Positions 15,910 through 57,535 of a DNA stretch of 64,000 nt are shown piece after piece; within the stretch, counting starts at the first letter, position 1, and the number at the start of each line of letters is the position of its first letter. This DNA is from an uncultured Planctomycetia bacterium (GTDB lineage Bacteria > Omnitrophota > Gorgyraeia > JABMRN01 > RBG-13-46-9). The notes under the pieces are model-generated. The model was not told the origin of the DNA. It did not search any database and saw only the letters and a list, made by a program, of their open reading frames with translations. The stretch covers positions 1,599 through 65,598 of the forward strand of contig CAYTQI010000003.1 in the NCBI GenBank assembly GCA_964440235.1, read 5' to 3'. The translations under genes and the position numbers were made by a program.

Positions 15910-16917
15910 TCAAGGCCACCGGTGCTGATCGCCCTTTACATTACATTCAACATCGGTAATAGCGTCCCCTTTGAATATCATGGTATAATCCTTGCCTTTC
16001 CCGCTGCCCGAAGGGCAGCTATGCCACTTCTCGTTTCTAAGATACTTTCTTTCCGAAAGGGCATCCAGGCGTTCCTCATCGCTCATATCCGCCAGGGAAT
16101 CTGTTTCATTTAAAATATACCCCACCGCTGCGGCAAAAATCGCCTTCTGGTTGGCAAGGCACAACTCATTTTGCGTGCTTGAACGGGCTTTCATGTAATT
16201 CGGTATGGCTATCATCATCAAAAGTCCGACAATGGCGGTTATAACCAGTATTTCAAAAACAGTAAACCCCGACGCGGTATAAATTATATCCTTACCGAGC
16301 CGCCTTATGTTTTTTACACGCAACCCGAAGGCGTTTTTTATGCTCTTGATACCCATATCCCCTACGCTTTCCACCCCCTTGCCCATGATCTTTGGCGATA
16401 TAACAGCTATAACCTTATCGGCGAGGCGGGCCTTCAGAAAGGAAGCGATAACACGCGAACCGCCCTCCACAAGTATTTTTCTCATTCCTCTCTTATAAAG
16501 TATACGGATAATCGCGTTCAAGTCAATATGGCCGTTTTTCGCGGCCGGTAAAACAATAATTTCAATTCCGGCGTTTTCAAAGTACTTTATTTTACCGACC
16601 GGGGCCGCAGGTGTCGTGATAATCATTGTTTTCGCGAGATCGGTTTTTTTCACGACGCGCGCGCTCTCCGGCACGCGAAGCCTGCTGTCAATAATAACCC
16701 TGGCTGGATTTTTCCCCTTAGCAAGGCGGACGGTAAGAGACGGGTCGTCGTTCAGGACAGTTTCTATCCCCACGATAACGGCATCGTTTTTCGCGCGTAA
16801 GGCATGGGCGAATTTCCGTGAGCGCGGGGCGCTTATCCACTTTGACGAGCCGTCGGGAGCGGCTATTTTTCCGTCAAGCGTCTGAGCGAATTTTACCGTT
16901 ATGTAAGGCCTTTTCAT
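15910..16917 (-). CDS. chimeric ORF: RibD C-terminal-type reductase domain (aa 1-217) continuing in-frame into a type IV pilin/pseudopilin-like N-terminal methylation motif plus about 100 aa pilin-like C-region
   Basis: The N-terminal half looks like RibD_C/DHFR-like (VKFAQTLDGKIAAPDG...VEGGSRV). At aa 218 the classical prepilin signature GFTVFEILVITAIVGLLMMIAIPNY begins, with no in-frame ATG/GTG/TTG between the domains. ATG at 16915-16917 confirmed. Confidence 0.55.
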   Translation of the reverse strand: MKRPYITVKFAQTLDGKIAAPDGSSKWISAPRSRKFAHALRAKNDAVIVGIETVLNDDPSLTVRLAKGKNPARVIIDSRLRVPESARVVKKTDLAKTMIITTPAAPVGKIKYFENAGIEIIVLPAAKNGHIDLNAIIRILYKRGMRKILVEGGSRVIASFLKARLADKVIAVISPKIMGKGVESVGDMGIKSIKNAFGLRVKNIRRLGKDIIYTASGFTVFEILVITAIVGLLMMIAIPNYMKARSSTQNELCLANQKAIFAAAVGYILNETDSLADMSDEERLDALSERKYLRNEKWHSCPSGSGKGKDYTMIFKGDAITDVECNVKGDQHRWP

Positions 16918-37574: not shown

Positions 37575-37630
37575 TCACATCCGGCGAAAATGTCAAATGT
37601 GAAGACCTGACCCCTTTCACCTGACTTGGA

Positions 37631-45279: not shown

Positions 45280-47427
45280 TTATTTTTCCTTTAATCCCAT
45301 CAAAACCGCTATCTCCTCATACACCTCTTCGGGTTTAATTGCCTTCATACAACTGTTGCGCTTGGCGCAACGGCTGTGATAGCACGGGCCGCACTTGAAT
45401 TTTTTTCTTAAAACTACGTGTTTTTTTTCGAACGGCGGCAGGTGCCTTTTCGGGTCGGTCGGCCCGAAAAGCGCGACAAAAGGAGTACCGACGCCCGCGG
45501 CCACGTGCAGCGGAGCGCTATCAACACACAGGACAAGATCGCACCTTTTTACCAGGGCCGCAAAATAAAGTATGTTCGTCCTGCCAATGGCGTCTATAGG
45601 TTTACACCTGGCGCGTGCCAAAAATTTATTCGCGAGAGGGCGTTCTTTTTCGAGGCCTGTCAGCAGGACTCGAATACCGAAGTTCAATGCGAGTTTGTTG
45701 CAAACCTCGGCAAAATATTCCGCCGGCCACAGTTTTGTATTCCAGCCGGCGCTCGCGCCGAGGCTAATGGCTATAATTTTTTGCCCGTCTTTCACCCAAT
45801 GGGACTTCAGGAAATTATCCGCCCATTCCTGATCTTCTTTTGAAAGGCAAATTTCCGGGCGCTTATCCATTCTGTATATACCCAGAAGATTCAGCACCTT
45901 TAGCTGGTGTTCCACCGGGTCAACGGGAAAACCTGAATCCCTGATTTTCCTGTTTAACAAAAAACTCATTTTCCCGTTGTCGTAACCGTACCTCTTCGGC
46001 ACGCACGCCATAAACGCGAGCATGTGGCTTTTTTTGTTGTTCTGAAAATCGATTGATATGTCAAAATTTTCGGCGTGAAGTTTTTTCAGGACACGCAGGA
46101 AACCCGCCGGGGAAGCGTCCCTGCCCTTGAAATCGCATATGATTATGTCGTCTATAAAATTGAGATTCGCGAGAACCCCCCTGTTTTCCACGCCAAGCAG
46201 AACTTTTATCTTCGCTTTCGGAAACTTCTTTCTTATGGCTCGAAGCGACGGAACAGCCAGGATAACGTCCCCCAGCGCCCCTATCTTTATGACAAGTATA
46301 TTCATACTCGAGGACGCTTCTTCATAAAGATCCAGTGTAGATTCCATTATGCTTTTTGTGCCGTATTCCTGTTTTAAAAGTTTTTCTGATTCGTTTTTGA
46401 TGTCGCTTTTTAAATTTTCATTTCTGTACAAACCGATTATCGCTTTCGCCGCCTCGCCCGGTTCTTCGCCTGAAATCAGGAAAGCTTTCTTGTTATCCCG
46501 CGCGTAATCTTTTATCCATTCAGCGCGCGTCGTAAACACCGGCACCCCTCCGGCCCAGGCACGCAAAAAAAGTTTCGGGGATGTGTACGCATCCGCGTTA
46601 AAATGCATGAACAAATCCAGGCCGGATATGGATTCCGATACTTTCTCGCCGGGCAAAAGAGTGACAACGCCTTCGAGCGAATACCGCCTTACGAGAAGCC
46701 TGAATTTTTCCAATTCCCTTTTTTGGCTTGTCAGCGCGCTATTAATCAAAAAAACCCTCATATTATATATTGTCCTGGAAATAATCGAAATTGTTTTTAC
46801 AAAATTTTCCGCCGCTTCCTGCGATGTAAGCGGCAAATTCACCCCAATATCAAAATACTTACCTCGTTCCACTGCGTCAGTGGAAAGAGGGGTACTCTTT
46901 CCACTGACGCAGTGGAACGAGGGGTTTTTCATGGAATTGAACTCCTGCGTGCCGGCAAACGGTGGTATAACGCGTATTTTGCCTCTGTGAATAAGGCCTT
47001 TTTCCATAAAGTACCTGGCAAAGCTTTCACAAGAACAGATTACGCGTTTTGCCCAAAATTGAGCCCTTGATCCCAACCCCCTTCCGCAAAAACCGTATAC
47101 CGTAGAAACAAATGTGCGTTCGGTAATGCGGCTTGCAAAAAATGATATGAGAGCCGAAGCGGGGCATCTCGCGTGTACAATGCGTATATCTTCTTTTCGA
47201 ATAATTTGTGACAGCTTAAAAATTGCCGCAGGAATCAGGAAAATATTCGCCGGAACCCCGAGAGCGTAATGACGCGCCCCGACTTCATCGATTTTTTTCA
47301 CGAGTTCACTTTTTGGGGAAGCCACGACAATCTTATGCCCGTTGAGAGCGAGAAAACGCGTGGAAACAATGACGTCGTCGGCGGCATCGCTCGAATCTAA
47401 CTTCGATATTACCTGTAGTATATTCAT
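45280..47427 (-). CDS. two-domain protein: N-terminal GT4-like glycosyltransferase fused to a C-terminal GT9 heptosyltransferase-like domain
   Basis: 715 aa continuous ORF. aa 1-370 are GT-B/GT4-like; aa 375-715 are GT9 (GALGDVILAVPS, SLGASAGWNTKLW, VDSAPLHVAAG). It contains a 61-bp perfect palindrome inserted in-frame (encoding SFHCVSGKSTPLSTDAVERG). Confidence 0.7.
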   Translation of the reverse strand: MNILQVISKLDSSDAADDVIVSTRFLALNGHKIVVASPKSELVKKIDEVGARHYALGVPANIFLIPAAIFKLSQIIRKEDIRIVHARCPASALISFFASRITERTFVSTVYGFCGRGLGSRAQFWAKRVICSCESFARYFMEKGLIHRGKIRVIPPFAGTQEFNSMKNPSFHCVSGKSTPLSTDAVERGKYFDIGVNLPLTSQEAAENFVKTISIISRTIYNMRVFLINSALTSQKRELEKFRLLVRRYSLEGVVTLLPGEKVSESISGLDLFMHFNADAYTSPKLFLRAWAGGVPVFTTRAEWIKDYARDNKKAFLISGEEPGEAAKAIIGLYRNENLKSDIKNESEKLLKQEYGTKSIMESTLDLYEEASSSMNILVIKIGALGDVILAVPSLRAIRKKFPKAKIKVLLGVENRGVLANLNFIDDIIICDFKGRDASPAGFLRVLKKLHAENFDISIDFQNNKKSHMLAFMACVPKRYGYDNGKMSFLLNRKIRDSGFPVDPVEHQLKVLNLLGIYRMDKRPEICLSKEDQEWADNFLKSHWVKDGQKIIAISLGASAGWNTKLWPAEYFAEVCNKLALNFGIRVLLTGLEKERPLANKFLARARCKPIDAIGRTNILYFAALVKRCDLVLCVDSAPLHVAAGVGTPFVALFGPTDPKRHLPPFEKKHVVLRKKFKCGPCYHSRCAKRNSCMKAIKPEEVYEEIAVLMGLKEK
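46862..46922. repeat. 61-bp perfect palindromic element, copy 1: 28-nt arms CCTCGTTCCACTGCGTCAGTGGAAAGAG around a 5-nt centre, inside the GT4-GT9 fusion gene
   Basis: Seen directly: cctcgttccactgcgtcagtggaaagag-gggta-ctctttccactgacgcagtggaacgagg. Shares the 19-nt core TTCCACTGCGTCAGTGGAA and its reverse complement with copy 2. The host ORF reads through it in-frame. Confidence 0.85.
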
Positions 47428-47492: not shown

Positions 47493-49493
47493 TTAAACGC
47501 CCAGCCGCCACATGTGCATGTATACATCGTGCATGTGTCTTTGTGGCGGGCGTTTCCCGAGTTTTTCTAAATTTTCGCATATCGCTTTCGAAATTTCATC
47601 GGGTTCGACAATCGTTATGTATCCTTTTTTTTCTAAACCATTCAGCATTCTTTCAAATTTTCCAGCCTTTGCCGGGATTTTGAAAAATTTCTTTTTGAAA
47701 TTCTGTATTCGGGACGGATTTTTTTTTCTGGAATTCAAACGAAAAACAATAACTGATTTTCCGCTCTGTACGGCTTCGGAAACCATGGAAGCGCTCTCGC
47801 CGGAAACAACCACCGCGTCACAGAGGCCTAAAATTCCGTCCACCGCGCGAGGAATGTTTTTTTCATTCGCTATAACTAAAAACCCGCAACGCTTTTCCGA
47901 TAATAACCGCTCCTTTACCGCTTTTTCCGCTTGAGCCGGAGTTCTCCGCGAAGTTGTAAATAAAATATCCGCGTCCGCTATTTCGGAAGCATTGATAACA
48001 CCGTTCAGAACTTTTTCCGTTATTTCCGGTGTTAAAGTAAAATCTGAATTATCTCCACCTAAGAGAACTCCGATTCTTTGCGGGTTTTTTAGACGCGCTA
48101 AATCGGAAATTTTCCCCGCGGCTGAATTCATTCGCTCCTCGTCTATCAGGTTTGGCACGATTTCCGTTCTTATCACATGGTCCCGGGCTCGCCCGATTAT
48201 TCGGTCGTGGCGCGGCAGGACAACCATGTCAAACTTGTCGAATCCCGGTATTGAGGGATTCATTATCGCGGCGCTTTTGGCATTATTTTCCACGGAAAAA
48301 AATCTGTTAACAGCCGCCGTGCCCGAACCGCAACTGATTACTATATCAGCGTATTTTCCCATCAATTCATTGTAACAACTTTCCGTAAGGCAGAACTTGA
48401 GGCAACGCATGCAACCCTGGCAGCGTTTTCCGGAAAAAATAGAACAAAATTTAAGCAACGCTTTGGTTGTTTCATTTTTGAACCTGATATCCACCACTTC
48501 CACCCGCGTGTCTTCTTCCCTGTAATCATCTTTTTTCCTGTACCGCTTCAGCTCCCGGCAAACAGCCAGGGACTGGTTAAGATGGCCGGCTTTCCCGTCA
48601 TTCAATACTACAACCTTTTTAAGCGACGACGCTTTCCATCTCTTGTGGAGCCATAACCACTGATCGGGATACATTGTAACGTATTTTTCCAGGAGTTTAT
48701 TGTATTTTTCCAGATACGGCTTTATGTCCTCGCCCTTTTTAATTCTGATAGGTTCGCCTACCATTAACCTGTGATAAGGCCCTTTTACGCGCGCCATAAA
48801 AGCAGGCAATATAAGGGCGCCTGTTTTTGCGGCTATTCTCACTGTCCCGGGCGCCGTGGCGGCCGGCCTTCCGAAAAACTCAATTTGCTCGCCCGTTTTA
48901 CCGGCGTTTTGATCGCCCAGCATTCCTATTATTTTGCCCTCATGCAACGCCTTCACGATATACTTTATCGTGATCCCTTTTGTAACAACGGTAAGGCCCT
49001 TTGACCGGCGAAGCCTGTTCAAAAGATTATCCAGCCTTTTCATGTTTTGTTCCCGTGCCAGGACAATCAGCGGCAAGCCTATCAGGGCGCTTACCACGCC
49101 GGAAAGTTCCCAGTTTCCAAAATGCGCCGTCAAAAATATCACTCCATCTGGATGTCCCTCGATTTTATAGAAATTTTCGCCGCCCACTATTTCAACATGC
49201 TTATCTATATACTTTTTGTCTACTTTTGTGAGCGAAATAATTTCAAAAAAAACCTGGGTGAGCCCCTGGTATACTTTCCTGGTAAGTTTTTTAAGCTCAG
49301 CCGGGGATTTATTGCCGGAAAAAGCGGCTCTCAGGTTCGCATAGGCAATAATTCTTCTCGGCCTGTTCAAAAAATACACGATTATCGAACAACGCCTCGC
49401 CAGCCATAACGTAAATTTCATGGGCAGCAGATAAAAAATCAGGCCAAGCGCCGTAACCAGGCACGCGCATATGTAATCAAGCAAGGATCGCAT
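47493..49493 (-). CDS. lpxL: lipid A biosynthesis lauroyl/myristoyl acyltransferase (LpxL/HtrB family) fused to an ELM1/DUF1022 domain
   Basis: N-terminal TM plus LPLAT HFGNWE motif; the C-terminal roughly 370 aa match the mitochondrial-fission ELM1-like family (VVVLNDGKAGHLNQSLAV...). Confidence 0.7.
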   Translation of the reverse strand: MRSLLDYICACLVTALGLIFYLLPMKFTLWLARRCSIIVYFLNRPRRIIAYANLRAAFSGNKSPAELKKLTRKVYQGLTQVFFEIISLTKVDKKYIDKHVEIVGGENFYKIEGHPDGVIFLTAHFGNWELSGVVSALIGLPLIVLAREQNMKRLDNLLNRLRRSKGLTVVTKGITIKYIVKALHEGKIIGMLGDQNAGKTGEQIEFFGRPAATAPGTVRIAAKTGALILPAFMARVKGPYHRLMVGEPIRIKKGEDIKPYLEKYNKLLEKYVTMYPDQWLWLHKRWKASSLKKVVVLNDGKAGHLNQSLAVCRELKRYRKKDDYREEDTRVEVVDIRFKNETTKALLKFCSIFSGKRCQGCMRCLKFCLTESCYNELMGKYADIVISCGSGTAAVNRFFSVENNAKSAAIMNPSIPGFDKFDMVVLPRHDRIIGRARDHVIRTEIVPNLIDEERMNSAAGKISDLARLKNPQRIGVLLGGDNSDFTLTPEITEKVLNGVINASEIADADILFTTSRRTPAQAEKAVKERLLSEKRCGFLVIANEKNIPRAVDGILGLCDAVVVSGESASMVSEAVQSGKSVIVFRLNSRKKNPSRIQNFKKKFFKIPAKAGKFERMLNGLEKKGYITIVEPDEISKAICENLEKLGKRPPQRHMHDVYMHMWRLGV

Positions 49494-52264: not shown

Positions 52265-53549
52265 GCCGCCGGTGGCCTCCTATAAAATGCGTTATTTCCT
52301 CAACATTTTTAATCGTAGCCCCTTTTTGCCTGTCCAGCAATTTTTTCGCATTCTGCCCCAACACCTCGGCTGTACTTTTATCCAGGAGCAATCTTCGAAG
52401 CGCCCCGGTTAACCCATCTTTGTCCGCAACCTCAAGGGCGGCTTTTTTTTCCAGAAAAATTCTCGCCATGTCCCTAAAATTAAACATATAAGGCCCGAAA
52501 ATAATGGGTTTCCCGAACATTGCCGGCTCCACCATGTTATGCCCGCCCCTTTTGACAAGGCTTCCGCCCATAAAAACAATTTCCGCAAGACCAAAAATCC
52601 ATTTAAGATCCCCTAAAGTATCAAGTATAAGAATTGTTTTTTCGGAAATATTTTTTTTTGCCGTTTTTTTGAAATATGATACAAATTCCCCTTTAAAACC
52701 CATTTTGTCGGTCATTTTTTTTATCGCGGCCGAACGCCCTATGTGACGGGGTGCTATGAGAAGACGCAAATTCCGGAATTCACTTGTTAGCTCAGCATAA
52801 ACCTGGAGGATTATTTCTTCCTCACCGCCGTGTGTGGATCCGGCCACGAACAACCGCCCGCCCGCCAATTCCACTGCGTCAGTGGAACCGGTATCCCACT
52901 GACGCAGTGGAATTGGTTGTTCGGCATCGAATTTCATGTTTCCCGTTACTTTAACGCATCTTGCCGGAGCGCCGAGGGATTTTATGTTGTATGCGTCCGT
53001 TTCCGTCTGCATGCAAAAAAGGCTGATTTTTTTCAATATACCTTCAAAAAAAATCTTTATTTTCCGGTATCCCCGTAAAGACCTATTTGAAATACGTCCG
53101 TTTATAAGTATCACCGGTATCTTTTTTTTCGACAGTTCCAAAATAAAATTCGGCCAGATTTCCGTTTCCATGATAAACACAGCCGAAGGATTAATAATGT
53201 TTATCACATGCCTCACCACAAAACTAAAATCTACCGGAAAATAAAATTTCCTGATTTCATTTCCGAATAACTTTTCGGCAACGGTATTACCGGTACGCGT
53301 CGTCGTTGAAAGAACGATTTTTTTATCCGGAAATTTGTTGGATAATTTTTTTACGAAATTTTTTACGGCCAGGACTTCGCCCACGCTTACAGCGTGTATC
53401 CATACCGGGCGCAGGGCACCTATTTCTCTGAATGCTGCCGGCAGGCGCCCGAAACGCTGCGTAAAATCACGGTGCGCCTTTCCCTTTATGACAAGATAGG
53501 GAAGATATGCAAGCGCGAATACGAAAAAGAATACATCGTAGATTGTCAT
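52254..53549 (-). CDS. waaA: 3-deoxy-D-manno-octulosonic acid (Kdo) transferase
   Basis: KdtA signature PVWIHAVSVGEVLA and the C-terminal GT-B domain. It contains the second copy of the palindromic element in-frame (encoding IPLRQWDTGSTDAVELAG). Confidence 0.85.
   Translation of the reverse strand: MTIYDVFFFVFALAYLPYLVIKGKAHRDFTQRFGRLPAAFREIGALRPVWIHAVSVGEVLAVKNFVKKLSNKFPDKKIVLSTTTRTGNTVAEKLFGNEIRKFYFPVDFSFVVRHVINIINPSAVFIMETEIWPNFILELSKKKIPVILINGRISNRSLRGYRKIKIFFEGILKKISLFCMQTETDAYNIKSLGAPARCVKVTGNMKFDAEQPIPLRQWDTGSTDAVELAGGRLFVAGSTHGGEEEIILQVYAELTSEFRNLRLLIAPRHIGRSAAIKKMTDKMGFKGEFVSYFKKTAKKNISEKTILILDTLGDLKWIFGLAEIVFMGGSLVKRGGHNMVEPAMFGKPIIFGPYMFNFRDMARIFLEKKAALEVADKDGLTGALRRLLLDKSTAEVLGQNAKKLLDRQKGATIKNVEEITHFIGGHRRHES
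52865..52916. repeat. 52-bp palindromic element, copy 2: arms CCAATTCCACTGCGTCAGTGG / CCACTGACGCAGTGGAATTGG around a 10-nt spacer containing ACCGGT, inside waaA
   Basis: Seen directly: ccaattccactgcgtcagtgg-aaccggtatc-ccactgacgcagtggaattgg. Same core as copy 1 with different flanks and spacer; in-frame in the host gene. Confidence 0.85.
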
Positions 53550-54645: not shown

Positions 54646-56643
54646 TCATGTATTTTCTTCCTTGGGCAACGACCTCGATGTATATTTGCACTCGGGAAAC
54701 TTCGTGCACCCGTAAAAAAACCCGCGTTTTGAGCGCCTTTCTATAAGTTCCCCGTCGCATCCGGGATTGGGGCATTTCACGCCTGTCGTAATGGATTTGG
54801 CAAATTTGCATTTTGGAAAATCGGAACAGCTTAAAAATTTTCCGCGCCTGCCCCATTTAATGATCATGGGCTTACCGCACAATTCACAAATCTCGTCGGT
54901 TTTTATGCCTTCTTTTTTTATGCTTTTCATATTTTTCTTGGCCATATCCACGCTGTGCATAAAAGGGCTGTAAAAGCCTTTTAACACTACGAGAGAATCG
55001 ATTTTCCCTTCTTCGATGCCATCAAGCTCTTCTTCCATTTTCGCCGTGAATTTAACATCCATTATTTTAGGGAAATGCTTTACAAGAAGGCTGTTCGTAA
55101 TTTCGCCTAATTCCGTGGGTGAAAGGTAACCCCTCATTCGTTTTACGTAATTACGCATTATGATAGTGTAAATAATCGGCGCGTAAGTGGATGGACGGCC
55201 TATCCCGTTTTCCTCCAACGCCTTTACCAGCGTGGCGTCGGAATAACGTGCCGGGGGTTTTGTAAAATGCTGGGATGGAACGAGTTTTAAAAGATTCAGG
55301 TGTTCCCCGACTTTTAATAGCGGCATCTTCCATTCGGACAGGCGCCTTTCCCCTTCTTTCTGTGTTTCAGAAGGGGTATATAAAATCGTGAAACCGTCAA
55401 AAACCACTCTTGTCCCGGATGTTTTAAAAAGGTAGGGGCCTGATTCTATAAAAACGGTATTTACCGAATATACCGCTTTCACCATCTGACTCGAGACAAA
55501 CCTCTTCCATATGAGTTCATATAACTTTAGTTGCTCCGGCGTTAAAAAATCTTTCAGTGTTTCCGGATTTCTTAAAGGTACTGTCGGCCTGATGCATTCA
55601 TGGGCCTCCTGGGCACTTTTTCGCGATTTATACACATTCGGTTTTGCGGGATAATACTTTTCGCCGTAAGTCTTTAATATATACTTTTTTGCTGCTTCCT
55701 GCGCGTCGCGCGAGACCCTTACGGAATCCGTTCTCATATACGTTATGAGACCCACACCCTCTTTATCTTCTAATTCCACGCCCTCATACAGGGATTGCGC
55801 TATGCGCATGGTTTTATTTACGGAAAAACGCAATTTGTTAAAAGCGTCCTGCTGCATTTTTGAAGTCGTGAAAGGCGCCTGTGGTGAACGTCTTTTTTTG
55901 CCTTCTTTTGTGTTTGATACAATAAATTCATTCTTTTTTATATTGTCCAGCGCGGAAGCGGCCTCTTTTTCGCTTGTAATGCGAAAATCTTTACCGTCAA
56001 TTTTGTCCAGGCTGGCCGTAAAACTGCGTTTCTCGTCAACCTTTTTTCTCAAATGCGCTTCTATTTCCCAGTATTCCTGCGGTTTGAATTTCCGTATCTC
56101 CGCCTCTTTTTCCACAACAAGCCGCACGGCTACGGATTGCACCCTGCCCGCGGAAAGGCCCCTGGTAATTTTTTTCCAGAGAAGAGGGCTCAAGCTGTAA
56201 CCCACAATTCTGTCCAGGATCCGGCGCGCCTGCTGGGCGCTTACAAGATTTTTATCAATGTCATGCGGGCGCTCAAAAGCTTTTGTTACAGCGGCGTGAG
56301 TGATTTCATCAAAAGTTACCCTGTATACTTTTTTTCCCCTGCCAAGTTCTCTTTTGAGGTGCCAGCTTATCGCCTCGCCTTCCCTGTCAGGATCAGCGGC
56401 GAGATATATGGCATCGCTATTTTTTATTTCTTTTTTTAGCTTTGCCAGGTATTTTCTTCTTTCGGGAATAACTATATACTCCGGCCTGAAATTATCTTCG
56501 ACATCGATTCCCATTTTGCTTTTCGGCAGGTCTATCATGTGGCCCATGCTCGAAAGCACTACATATCCCGAACCAAGTATCTTGTTGATCGTTTTGGATT
56601 TTGCGGGTGACTCCACTATGACAATTGCTTTTCTTTTAGGCAT
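54646..56643 (-). CDS. topA: DNA topoisomerase I
   Basis: TOPRIM N-terminus (IVIVESPAKSKTI, DPDREGEAISWHL), catalytic Tyr region, C-terminal Cx2C zinc-ribbon repeats. Confidence 0.9.
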   Translation of the reverse strand: MPKRKAIVIVESPAKSKTINKILGSGYVVLSSMGHMIDLPKSKMGIDVEDNFRPEYIVIPERRKYLAKLKKEIKNSDAIYLAADPDREGEAISWHLKRELGRGKKVYRVTFDEITHAAVTKAFERPHDIDKNLVSAQQARRILDRIVGYSLSPLLWKKITRGLSAGRVQSVAVRLVVEKEAEIRKFKPQEYWEIEAHLRKKVDEKRSFTASLDKIDGKDFRITSEKEAASALDNIKKNEFIVSNTKEGKKRRSPQAPFTTSKMQQDAFNKLRFSVNKTMRIAQSLYEGVELEDKEGVGLITYMRTDSVRVSRDAQEAAKKYILKTYGEKYYPAKPNVYKSRKSAQEAHECIRPTVPLRNPETLKDFLTPEQLKLYELIWKRFVSSQMVKAVYSVNTVFIESGPYLFKTSGTRVVFDGFTILYTPSETQKEGERRLSEWKMPLLKVGEHLNLLKLVPSQHFTKPPARYSDATLVKALEENGIGRPSTYAPIIYTIIMRNYVKRMRGYLSPTELGEITNSLLVKHFPKIMDVKFTAKMEEELDGIEEGKIDSLVVLKGFYSPFMHSVDMAKKNMKSIKKEGIKTDEICELCGKPMIIKWGRRGKFLSCSDFPKCKFAKSITTGVKCPNPGCDGELIERRSKRGFFYGCTKFPECKYTSRSLPKEENT

Positions 56644-57535
56644 ATTCCTCTTTTATAAAATTTTCGCCCGGCAAAGTTTTAATCAGCTTCTTAAGCTCAA
56701 GCCTAAGCAGCGTTTCCGATATTTTATTTACCGGTATGTTTATTATTTTCGATATTTCATCGATTGACCTGGGCTCGTTTCCCAAAATTTCGAATATTTT
56801 CGCCTCATCCGCCGACATGGACCTTACAATACCGGGTTTTGGTAAACCCGGTATTGTAAGGTTATTGCTGGTTTTCTTAATGTTAATGACGTAGCTGAGT
56901 TCCTCGAGTATATCCCCGACGTTTTCGACAAGCTTGGCGCCTTCCTTTATGAGGCGGTTTGTGCCGCTTGATTTGGCAGAGCTTACATTGCCGGGCATAG
57001 CGAAAACCTCTCTTCCCTGTTCAAGGGCAAAATTGGCCGTTATTAAAGCGCCGCTTTTTTGAGGGGCTTCTATCACAATTACGCCTTTTGACATGCCGCT
57101 TACTATCCTGTTTCTCCTTGGAAAATTCAGTTTAAGCGGCGGCGTCTCCGGCGAATATTCCGATATGACCGCCCCGTTTCTCACAATTTCGCGGTAAAGC
57201 TTGGCGTTTTCCGGAGGATATATATTATCGTGCCCGCTTCCCAGAACCGCTATCGTTCTCCCGCCGGCCTTTATAGCGCCTCTATGCGAGGCGGTATCGA
57301 TACCAAGAGCCATTCCGCTGACAATGGTTATTCCCCGCGCGGCCAGGTCAAATGAAAGTTTTTCGCACTGCCGGAGCCCGTAATCCGTGGCGCGCCTGGT
57401 GCCAACGATGGCTATCGCGTTTGAATCAGAGGCAAGGATTTCACCGTTAACAAAAAGCGCTTCCGGTGCGTTGTATATATGCCTCAAGATATCGGGATAT
57501 TCCCCGTTTTCCTTTTCTATTCTTCTTACAGCCAT
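56636..57535 (-). CDS. dprA: DNA processing protein DprA (Smf)
   Basis: Rossmann-like DprA core (IVGTRRATDYG...IVSGMALGIDTASH...IAVLGSGHD) plus a C-terminal winged-helix-like segment. Confidence 0.85.
   Translation of the reverse strand: MAVRRIEKENGEYPDILRHIYNAPEALFVNGEILASDSNAIAIVGTRRATDYGLRQCEKLSFDLAARGITIVSGMALGIDTASHRGAIKAGGRTIAVLGSGHDNIYPPENAKLYREIVRNGAVISEYSPETPPLKLNFPRRNRIVSGMSKGVIVIEAPQKSGALITANFALEQGREVFAMPGNVSSAKSSGTNRLIKEGAKLVENVGDILEELSYVINIKKTSNNLTIPGLPKPGIVRSMSADEAKIFEILGNEPRSIDEISKIINIPVNKISETLLRLELKKLIKTLPGENFIKEEYA

Follow-up and report, generated by a model that had tools for sequence, protein, structure and literature searches.

How does a long, perfect palindrome come to lie inside the reading frame of a lipopolysaccharide (LPS) glycosyltransferase gene? 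The question is raised by a 64-kb stretch of DNA (the window, by which we mean all 64,000 nucleotides analysed) from a Candidatus Omnitrophota bacterium, in which one palindrome, copy a, sits within a gene for a fused GT4-GT9 glycosyltransferase (GT) and a second with the same core, copy b, lies 6 kb away in waaA. The homologues all belong to Candidatus Omnitrophota. We regard the palindrome as a probable REPIN, that is, two inverted repetitive extragenic palindromic (REP) units, belonging to a family served by a REP-associated tyrosine transposase (RAYT) and tolerated in coding linkers in an Omnitrophota lineage. The observations behind this reading are membership in a dispersed family, a doublet architecture, a REP-flanked RAYT gene in a close relative, in-frame copies in seven genes, close orthologs without the element, and the location of the copies in linkers and loops.

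The first-pass annotation of the window had reported a 61-bp perfect palindrome in the 715-aa GT4-GT9 gene, and an inverted-repeat search recovered it as 28+5+28 nt, with the sequence as quoted. The same core had been said to recur as an inverted pair inside waaA, where we find one exact unit (52869-52887) and one with a single mismatch (52894-52912). The features concerned are the following; here and below, L-numbers are labels of retrieved loci and P-numbers labels of proteins.

45280..47427, - strand: GT4-GT9 fusion gene, 715 aa, lipopolysaccharide heptosyltransferase II-like (Pfam)
46861..46925, unstranded: copy a of the probable REPIN, whole element with family flanks (ACC-TCG-core ... 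core-CGA-GGGGT), from the flank consensus and blastn matches to L144, L119, L149 and others
46862..46922, unstranded: perfect palindrome of copy a, 28+5+28 nt, with arms at 46862-46889 and 46895-46922, 100% complementary, and a 5-nt spacer
46867..46885, + strand: REP core unit 1 (TTCCACTG-CGT-CAGTGGAA), 0 mismatches, itself an 8-bp hairpin with a 3-nt loop
46899..46917, - strand: REP core unit 2, inverted, 0 mismatches; the + strand reads TTCCACTG-ACG-CAGTGGAA
52254..53549, - strand: waaA, encoding 3-deoxy-D-manno-octulosonic acid (Kdo) transferase, 431 aa, with Glycos_transf_N (PF04413) at residues 29-209 and Glycos_transf_1 at 248-403
52865..52918, unstranded: copy b of the probable REPIN, palindrome with its GGTT flank, perfect as 21+10+21 nt at 52865-52916
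52865-52885 and 52896-52916: arms of copy b, 21 nt, 100% complementary, with a 10-nt spacer
52869..52887, + strand: REP core unit 3, 0 mismatches
52894..52912, - strand: REP core unit 4, 1 mismatch

Each 19-nt arm core is itself a small hairpin, and the element is therefore a REP doublet that is also able to fold into one long hairpin, not the simple palindrome of the earlier description. As the units of one pair are inverted, their middle three nucleotides are CGT and ACG, respectively. The window has four occurrences of the 19-mer TTCCACTGCGTCAGTGGAA at no more than one mismatch, as two inverted pairs, and a degenerate search allowing up to three mismatches found no other occurrence in the 64 kb. 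A further 2 kb retrieved beyond the near end of the window is likewise free of REPs. The chance expectation is zero (0 matches in 100 dinucleotide shuffles), in agreement with the claim that the pairing is beyond chance. A strong RNA hairpin had likewise been foreseen, and the sense-strand RNA of copy a folds at -56.8 kcal/mol (z = -14.9) and that of copy b at -52.8 kcal/mol (z = -9.8). The supposed multiple-of-three length fared less well: the perfect palindromes measure 61 and 52 nt, neither a multiple of 3, and what is kept is the net frame. An Rfam scan of the whole window at gathering thresholds gave zero matches.

Metagenome contigs were scanned with the query CCACTGNNNCAGTGG-N(0-30)-CCACTGNNNCAGTGG. 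Among the 50 stretches returned, many of which are unrelated tandem repeats, 15 carry the same 19-nt core (14 doublets and a single unit), distributed over 11 contigs of Ga0180431 and its sister sample Ga0180432. The family, counted over the window and the 11 metagenome contigs, consists of 35 units with the same core at no more than two mismatches, four of them in the window. The GC content of the REP-bearing stretches is 0.45-0.49, versus 0.466 in the window. The consensus of the 35 units reads (a)aaCCCyg-TTCCACTGCGTCAGTGGAA-..., with C at position -4 in 30 of 35, and the units sit within AACC...GGTT, in a flank pattern (A)AACC-nn-core-nn-GGTT(T). Both window copies agree with the family consensus (ACC-TCG-core...core-CGA-GGGGT; on the minus strand, AACC-AA-core).

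The doublets have spacers of 6-18 nt and are mostly oriented CGT..ACG, with three in the order ACG..CGT and one direct pair. Over the 16 inverted doublets, arm pairing holds in 90.5% of cells, versus 79.9% in shuffles (0/500) and 29-48% with the partner slid. The outer flanks vary in sequence yet remain complementary, and at the two core-adjacent flank positions 6 and 8 of the 16 copies are changed on both sides. The direct pair, in a TrpE/PabB-like gene (L124 6695-6753, Ga0180432_10003241), is the only doublet with direct units (CGT..CGT) and lies in frame between two Pfam domains; its spacer and right flank form an inverted repeat of their own (CCACTCGTTCTACCCG / CGGGTAGAACGAGTGG).

Seven of the 16 doublets, the two in the window included, lie in frame within genes that have Pfam matches on both sides of the insert. 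The hosts are GT and WaaA (window), PyrK (L119), TrpE/PabB (L124), CoaX (L134), Sua5/YrdC (L162) and a PMT_2/TPR membrane protein (L139). The TrpE/PabB copy falls between Anth_synt_I_N and Chorismate_bind, and those in PyrK, CoaX and Sua5 fall in loops inside domains. Eight further doublets nearly fill very short intergenic gaps, and one is at the start of truB, possibly upstream of the true start codon. Comparison of a filled CoaX (L134) with an empty one (L176, ~76% identical) gives a gain of 19 aa, and the corresponding gains are 11 aa for PyrK relative to 5KSW and 15 aa for Sua5 relative to 6F89. All five stop-free frames of the core are in use. Freedom from stop codons had been singled out in the first-pass annotation as a notable property of the two palindromes, but family doublets average 3.0 of 6 open frames versus 2.97 in length-matched windows taken at random from that DNA. 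We therefore reject stop-free frames as a designed property: since the doublets are no more open than random DNA of equal length, their in-frame survival looks like a filter, not design. The significance attached to both hosts being LPS enzymes does not survive either, nor does LPS-specific targeting, as the other hosts (PyrK, CoaX, Sua5, TrpE/PabB and the PMT_2/TPR protein) are unrelated enzymes.

In the fused glycosyltransferase, Pfam places Glyco_transf_4 at residues 24-157, Glyco_trans_1_4 at 204-336 (group-1 GT region 204-349) and Glyco_transf_9 at 444-689. The open reading frame (ORF) runs straight through copy a as ...NPSFHCVSGKSTPLSTDAVERGKYF..., and the residues that the copy encodes, approximately 168-190, belong to the linker that joins the two Rossmann halves of the GT4 module and is hypervariable in the alignment. 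An AlphaFold model built from 60 sequences (mean predicted local distance difference test score, pLDDT, 86.1; predicted template modelling score, pTM, 0.84) has only one long stretch with pLDDT below 50, a coil at 163-189 that separates the final elements of the first Rossmann half (E151-153, H161-165) from the opening strand of the second (E192-197), and this coil coincides with the translated copy a. As modelled, the in-frame translation of copy a forms a disordered peptide in the linker. The alignment with orthologs proposed in the earlier annotation supports an insertion at this position: between IPPF and (K)YF the linker measures 33 aa in the window versus 22-25 aa in orthologs at 68-71% identity, and the close orthologs L163 and L170 have the linker without a REP.

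The WaaA frame similarly runs through copy b as ...QPIPLRQWDTGSTDAVELAGG..., and the residues encoded by the copy, approximately 213-228 (IPLRQWDTGSTDAVEL), separate the N-terminal GT-B domain from the C-terminal one. The linker is variable among 49 aligned homologues, and the orthologs in L163 (76% identical) and L168 (70%) are without REP. Relative to the Aquifex WaaA structure 2XCI the linker is 11 aa longer, seen as an 11-residue gap in the structure at the position of copy b. The second unit is read in the same frame in GT and WaaA (STDAVE), and the first in different frames (FHCVSG and PLRQW).

A candidate for the mobilising enzyme is encoded in L144, with the same locus in L166 and L167. 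The gene is a 209-aa ORF (P0241) with a good ribosome-binding site and family members on both sides, with a doublet that precedes the start by 38 nt and a single REP unit that follows the stop by 19 nt. P0241 matches Pfam Y1_Tnp (PF01797) with 31.1 bits against a cut-off of 23, and its best match in the PDB is the E. coli TnpA-REP 4ER8 (E = 2e-6), in an alignment that pairs LMPTHLHLI with VLPEHMHCI at the HUH motif and RYIHLNPV with DYIYINPV at the catalytic Tyr. The protein has more than 2,000 homologues, many of them annotated as Omnitrophota transposases.

The P0241 gene is located between cinA and recA, and two homologues at 60-63% identity occupy the same interval in other species (L173 and L175), flanked by different hairpins (TTGGCGACCG-CGT-CGGTCGCCAA and TCAACCTCGTAGG-TTAA-CCTACGAGGTTGA). 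The cinA-RAYT-recA order thus spans three species, and the homologue in GCA_049642705.1 is at a different locus. RAYTs are described as single-copy, vertically inherited genes with lineage-specific REPs (PMC5581495), a pattern to which the cinA-recA homologues with their different hairpins may conform. Hairpins beside the RAYT homologues were located at 2865-2990 and 3644-3670 in L173, at 2950-2985 and 3648-3680 in L175, and at 1-155 and 830-870 in L176. The L176 homologue adjoins groEL, and the L173 hairpin has an apical GCGTC loop, as in the window family.

By analogy with characterised REP/RAYT systems, a Y1 (HUH) tyrosine transposase, encoded by a single, fixed gene of the chromosome, would copy the elements in trans, recognising the REP hairpin in single-stranded DNA and mobilising the elements from there; the window's own genome would presumably encode a RAYT of the P0241 type. 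Because these genomes have almost no intergenic space, many insertions would hit genes. The copies that persist would be those that keep the frame, have no stop in the frame used, and lie in flexible surface loops or inter-domain linkers, where 15-20 extra residues would be harmless and probably neutral for enzyme function. Through copy a, the linker between the Rossmann halves of the GT4 module would gain a disordered peptide, and copy b would occupy the equivalent GT-B linker of WaaA. The original suggestion of a dispersed, in-frame element resembling REPs or Rickettsia palindromic elements (RPEs) is in this way upheld by the 35-unit family, the REPIN architecture, the RAYT-type gene flanked by units, the seven of 16 doublets in frame and the empty close orthologs.

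Several observations weigh against a REPIN mobilised by a RAYT. A tblastn search found no RAYT gene in the 64-kb window, and the window and the RAYT-bearing contigs have no genes in common in the DNA compared; the ENA assemblies that would link the RAYT and the window, ERZ27256770 and ERZ27256778, have adjacent identifiers and come from different samples. The best NCBIfam match of P0241, NF047646 ('REP-associated tyrosine transposase'), reaches 69.4 bits and stays under the equivalog cut-off of 80. No terminal GTAG or CGTC tag is conserved in the 35 units: GGTAG or GGTTAG is found in some copies only, and CGTC in the apical loop only. No presence/absence polymorphism was seen among the contigs encoding the 715-aa protein, 10 of 10 of which carry the element. 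A simple insertion is also not what the WaaA linker suggests, at 24 aa versus 25-27 aa in the nearest orthologs; as the linker is equally long there, a net insertion is not demonstrable at that distance. Finally, another genome has a variant doublet in the same GT linker (L165), which plain recent random insertion does not predict.

The variant doublet belongs to GCA_049642705.1, whose GT ortholog is 68% identical (L165 2646-2687), and lies in frame in the same linker as TTCCACTCCGGGAGTGGAA-AGCCT-TCCACTCCCGGAGTGGAT. Its arms have both changed in concert with pairing kept (G8:C12 to C8:G12, and CGT/ACG to CGG/CCG). The linker of the GT ortholog in L163 (10001-12103) has TCCGGGATTAAACCT where L165 has TCCGGGAGTGGAAAGCCT; TCCGGGATTAAACCT may be a decayed REP relic. 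The window itself retains GAGTTCAATTCC just upstream of copy a, where the L165 arm begins GAGTTCCACTCC. The L165 variant possibly goes back to an ancient insertion whose arms were homogenised and so stayed palindromic, or is an old REP site that was re-colonised. We also considered whether the variant is the REP that flanks the RAYT of that metagenome-assembled genome, and found this unsupported: the hairpin that flanks the one RAYT located there (P0282, L176), AACCGACCC..CAACCGCCCCGGTTG..GGGGTCGGTT, is unrelated, although a second RAYT is possible. More generally, REPINs in this Omnitrophota clade might stay at one coding site, or come back to it, over long spans of evolution, a proposal that we consider rather doubtful. 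If it were true, the RAYT would direct new REPINs to old REP-like hairpins and overwrite these on the spot; alternatively, the arms would be continuously homogenised by template switching, as in dprA, with the coding hairpin maintained for function.

The dprA gene of the window (56636-57535, - strand) contains a third perfect palindrome at 56821-56862 (19+4+19, ACCTTACAATACCGGGTTT / AAACCCGGTATTGTAAGGT), in the linker between the Rossmann and winged-helix domains. Relative to the ortholog in L168 the length is unchanged; the 3' arm equals the ortholog's coding sequence at 16 of 19 nt, the 5' arm alone being new. A further copy was found in none of the retrieved loci. By these sequence comparisons it looks like an in-place template-switch product (quasi-palindrome correction), not a REP copy, and homogenising events thus probably occur in this genome.

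How do other origins of the palindrome compare with a REPIN? One candidate is an assembly or chimera artefact at the hairpin, since hairpins are able to provoke assembler errors. However, an identical 715-aa protein is encoded on 10 contigs (from JGI 3300029267 and the Logan runs SRR6963311, SRR14699969, SRR14699967 and SRR6963479), the same palindromes were found in the DNA of the five JGI and Logan loci checked, and the window organism is also present in ENA ERZ27256778. The same gene sequence in at least five independent assemblies means that the palindrome is not an artefact, and since this DNA recurs in assemblies from JGI, Logan and ENA (at least five samples), on contigs of up to 60-88 kb and with the ORF intact, we give that explanation practically no credence. 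A palindrome arising in place through template-switch errors (quasi-palindrome correction), with no mobile element involved, would be in keeping with the footprint of the dprA palindrome at 56821-56862, and the same process could keep the arms of a REPIN perfect. It gives no account of the same 19-nt core recurring in 35 units, across a dozen contigs and beside a RAYT gene, or of two copies 6 kb apart in unrelated contexts; at most it explains the perfection of the arms, and as the origin of the element it is very improbable. We attach equally little weight to a MITE (miniature inverted-repeat transposable element) of the Correia/NEMIS or RPE type that stems from an insertion sequence (IS) with a DDE transposase, with the RAYT association coincidental. 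In its favour, the element is short, palindromic and dispersed and is translated along with its host gene, traits that RPEs and some MITEs are described as having, but it is ~60 nt long and made of two self-complementary 19-nt units, not of terminal inverted repeats around a core; the same unit lies on both flanks of a Y1 transposase gene, and RAYT homologues at the same locus carry other hairpins. The likeness to Correia elements and MITEs noted in the earlier annotation was therefore not substantiated: by eye, in place of a formal search, no flanking direct repeat was seen at either window copy, and no DDE-type relative turned up.

More can be said for a domesticated hairpin, kept for a role as nucleic acid: a ribosome pause at a domain boundary that aids stepwise Rossmann folding, a hairpin that stabilises or processes the mRNA, or an antisense terminator. 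The stems are very stable (-57 kcal/mol), arm complementarity survives changes on both sides, and the L165 variant doublet has its arms changed in concert in the same linker. In three hosts the element falls between Pfam domains (GT 157/204, WaaA 209/248 and TrpE/PabB 149/236), but the other in-frame hosts PyrK, CoaX and Sua5 have it in intradomain loops, and a linker position is equally predicted by a pure tolerance filter. On the + strand, antisense to the GT gene, copy a presents a 28-bp stem followed by GGTTTTT (T-run 46925-46929); copy a was not flagged in a terminator and promoter scan, which was uninformative. For both genes the closest orthologs are without the element (L163, L170 and L168), nine of the 16 doublets are intergenic or at a gene start, and all five open frames are used, which argues against a preferred peptide or reading phase. 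We consider domestication unlikely, and retain a REPIN tolerated in coding linkers as the favoured explanation.

REP and REPIN elements with RAYTs were reportedly treated by Nunvar in 2010 and by Ton-Hoang in 2012. The Omnitrophota element resembles REP/REPIN-RAYT systems such as the E. coli REPs with TnpA-REP and the Pseudomonas REPINs (Bertels & Rainey 2011, PMC3116915; Messing 2012, PMC3479197; PMC3337134; PMC5581495) in its 19-nt hairpin unit with an identical dispersed core, in the inverted pairing of units over a short variable spacer to give a long hairpin, in a Y1/HUH gene flanked by the same units, and in a transposase at a conserved chromosomal locus with lineage-specific REPs. Unlike those systems, it has ~40% of its doublets inside genes and no conserved terminal GTAG, and its copy density of ~1 per 30-40 kb is far lower than in Pseudomonas or E. 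coli. The extragenic location that gives REPs their name does not describe the family, with seven of 16 doublets intragenic and one at a gene start.

Closer in habit are the GTAG and CGTC REPs inside genes described by Di Nocera, De Gregorio & Rocco in 2013 (PMC3733652), mostly dimers encoding 20-30 aa. In that survey intragenic REPs are most numerous in Opitutus terrae and in R. conorii (RPE-4 and RPE-6) and are also found in Thauera, Xanthomonas and others; truB is among the hosts, and recB of X. campestris and X. oryzae has different REPs at about the same site (PMC3733652). The Omnitrophota family is similar in that singles and dimers lie in frame in housekeeping genes, that truB may be a host, and that different REPs occupy approximately the same orthologous site. 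It differs in belonging to another sequence family, in having CGTC in the apical loop and not at the end, and in hosts that are LPS and metabolic genes, not mainly DNA-repair genes. O. terrae is a member of the same PVC (Planctomycetes, Verrucomicrobia, Chlamydiae) group of phyla.

With RPE-1 (Ogata et al. 2000, 2002) the element shares the property of being palindromic selfish DNA read in frame at surface-compatible positions of functional proteins. RPE-1, however, is ~100-150 bp long, with a conserved peptide of 30-50 aa as its product; it is confined to Rickettsia and no transposase is known for it, whereas the Omnitrophota element is ~60 nt long, is read in five frames and has a candidate transposase. 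Its length, its Omnitrophota host and its five frames without a conserved peptide set it apart from the RPE-1 to RPE-10 families by description. Correia/NEMIS elements and other MITEs are similarly short, non-autonomous and often co-transcribed, but they are marked by terminal inverted repeats, by target-site duplications and by descent from a DDE-type IS; none of these is seen here (direct repeats having been judged by eye), and the only transposase associated with the Omnitrophota element is of the Y1 type.

Among the papers that could be searched, we found none linking Omnitrophota with RAYTs or REPINs. The present case would extend REPIN/RAYT systems to a phylum of mostly uncultured, ultra-small bacteria, and would provide a clean example of a REP family with a candidate transposase that acts like the Rickettsia RPEs, adding disordered peptides to essential enzymes. 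To our knowledge, no mobilising enzyme has ever been known for RPEs; because the Omnitrophota system has both features, how selfish DNA enters genes without lethal effect becomes testable. Such repeats can also break assemblies and create lineage-specific indels in marker proteins, and could mislead alignment-based phylogeny or domain annotation in Omnitrophota. Given that intragenic REPs, and REP dimers encoding 20-30 aa, were already described in 2013, the conceptual gain is modest. What distinguishes this REP family is its unusually high intragenic fraction together with one unexplained same-site variant.

Some minor observations concern the surroundings and the searches. A 27-nt motif, AAATGTCAAATGTGAAGRCCTGACCCC, matches exactly between the window (37588-37614, intergenic) and a REP-bearing Ga0180431 contig (L155 10273-10299), and a 20-nt part of it is also in L166 (- strand, position 16569). 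In L155 it forms the right half of a 16-bp palindrome (TTCACATTTGACATTT...AAATGTCAAATGTGAA). Rfam has no match to the motif, which may represent another family of small repeats or else a regulatory site that has been conserved, and, being unrelated to the REP and common to the window and a REP-bearing contig, it supports a close relationship of the two genomes. Short contigs of other samples (L113, L114, L118, L120, L127, L131, L138, L151, L154 and L157) also came up in the metagenome scan, with unrelated tandem arrays built on CCACTGnnnCAGTGG whose period is ~20-25 nt or longer. A scan of genome contigs with the 17-mer TTCCACTGCGTCAGTGG gave, among the matches listed, no Omnitrophota genome, only an unrelated Streptococcus small ORF and chance single hits. 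In L006-L112 (Streptococcus) the 17-mer lies in this conserved small ORF, MSKKLTFHCVSGR(D/N)LL..VGLPHAQH, right after a strong ribosome-binding site; the ORF looks like a leader or small peptide unrelated to the REP, and has the FHCVSG peptide only because the DNA word is identical.

The two host genes in the window lie in an LPS core cluster (lpxK, an lpxL-like fusion and several GT9 genes), preceded by a xerC-like gene, topA and dprA. At 47493-49493 (- strand) a 666-aa fusion joins a lipid A acyltransferase domain (PF03279) to an ELM1-like domain (PF06258), and this PF03279-PF06258 fusion is kept in the syntenic loci of relatives, adjoining the GT4-GT9 fusion.

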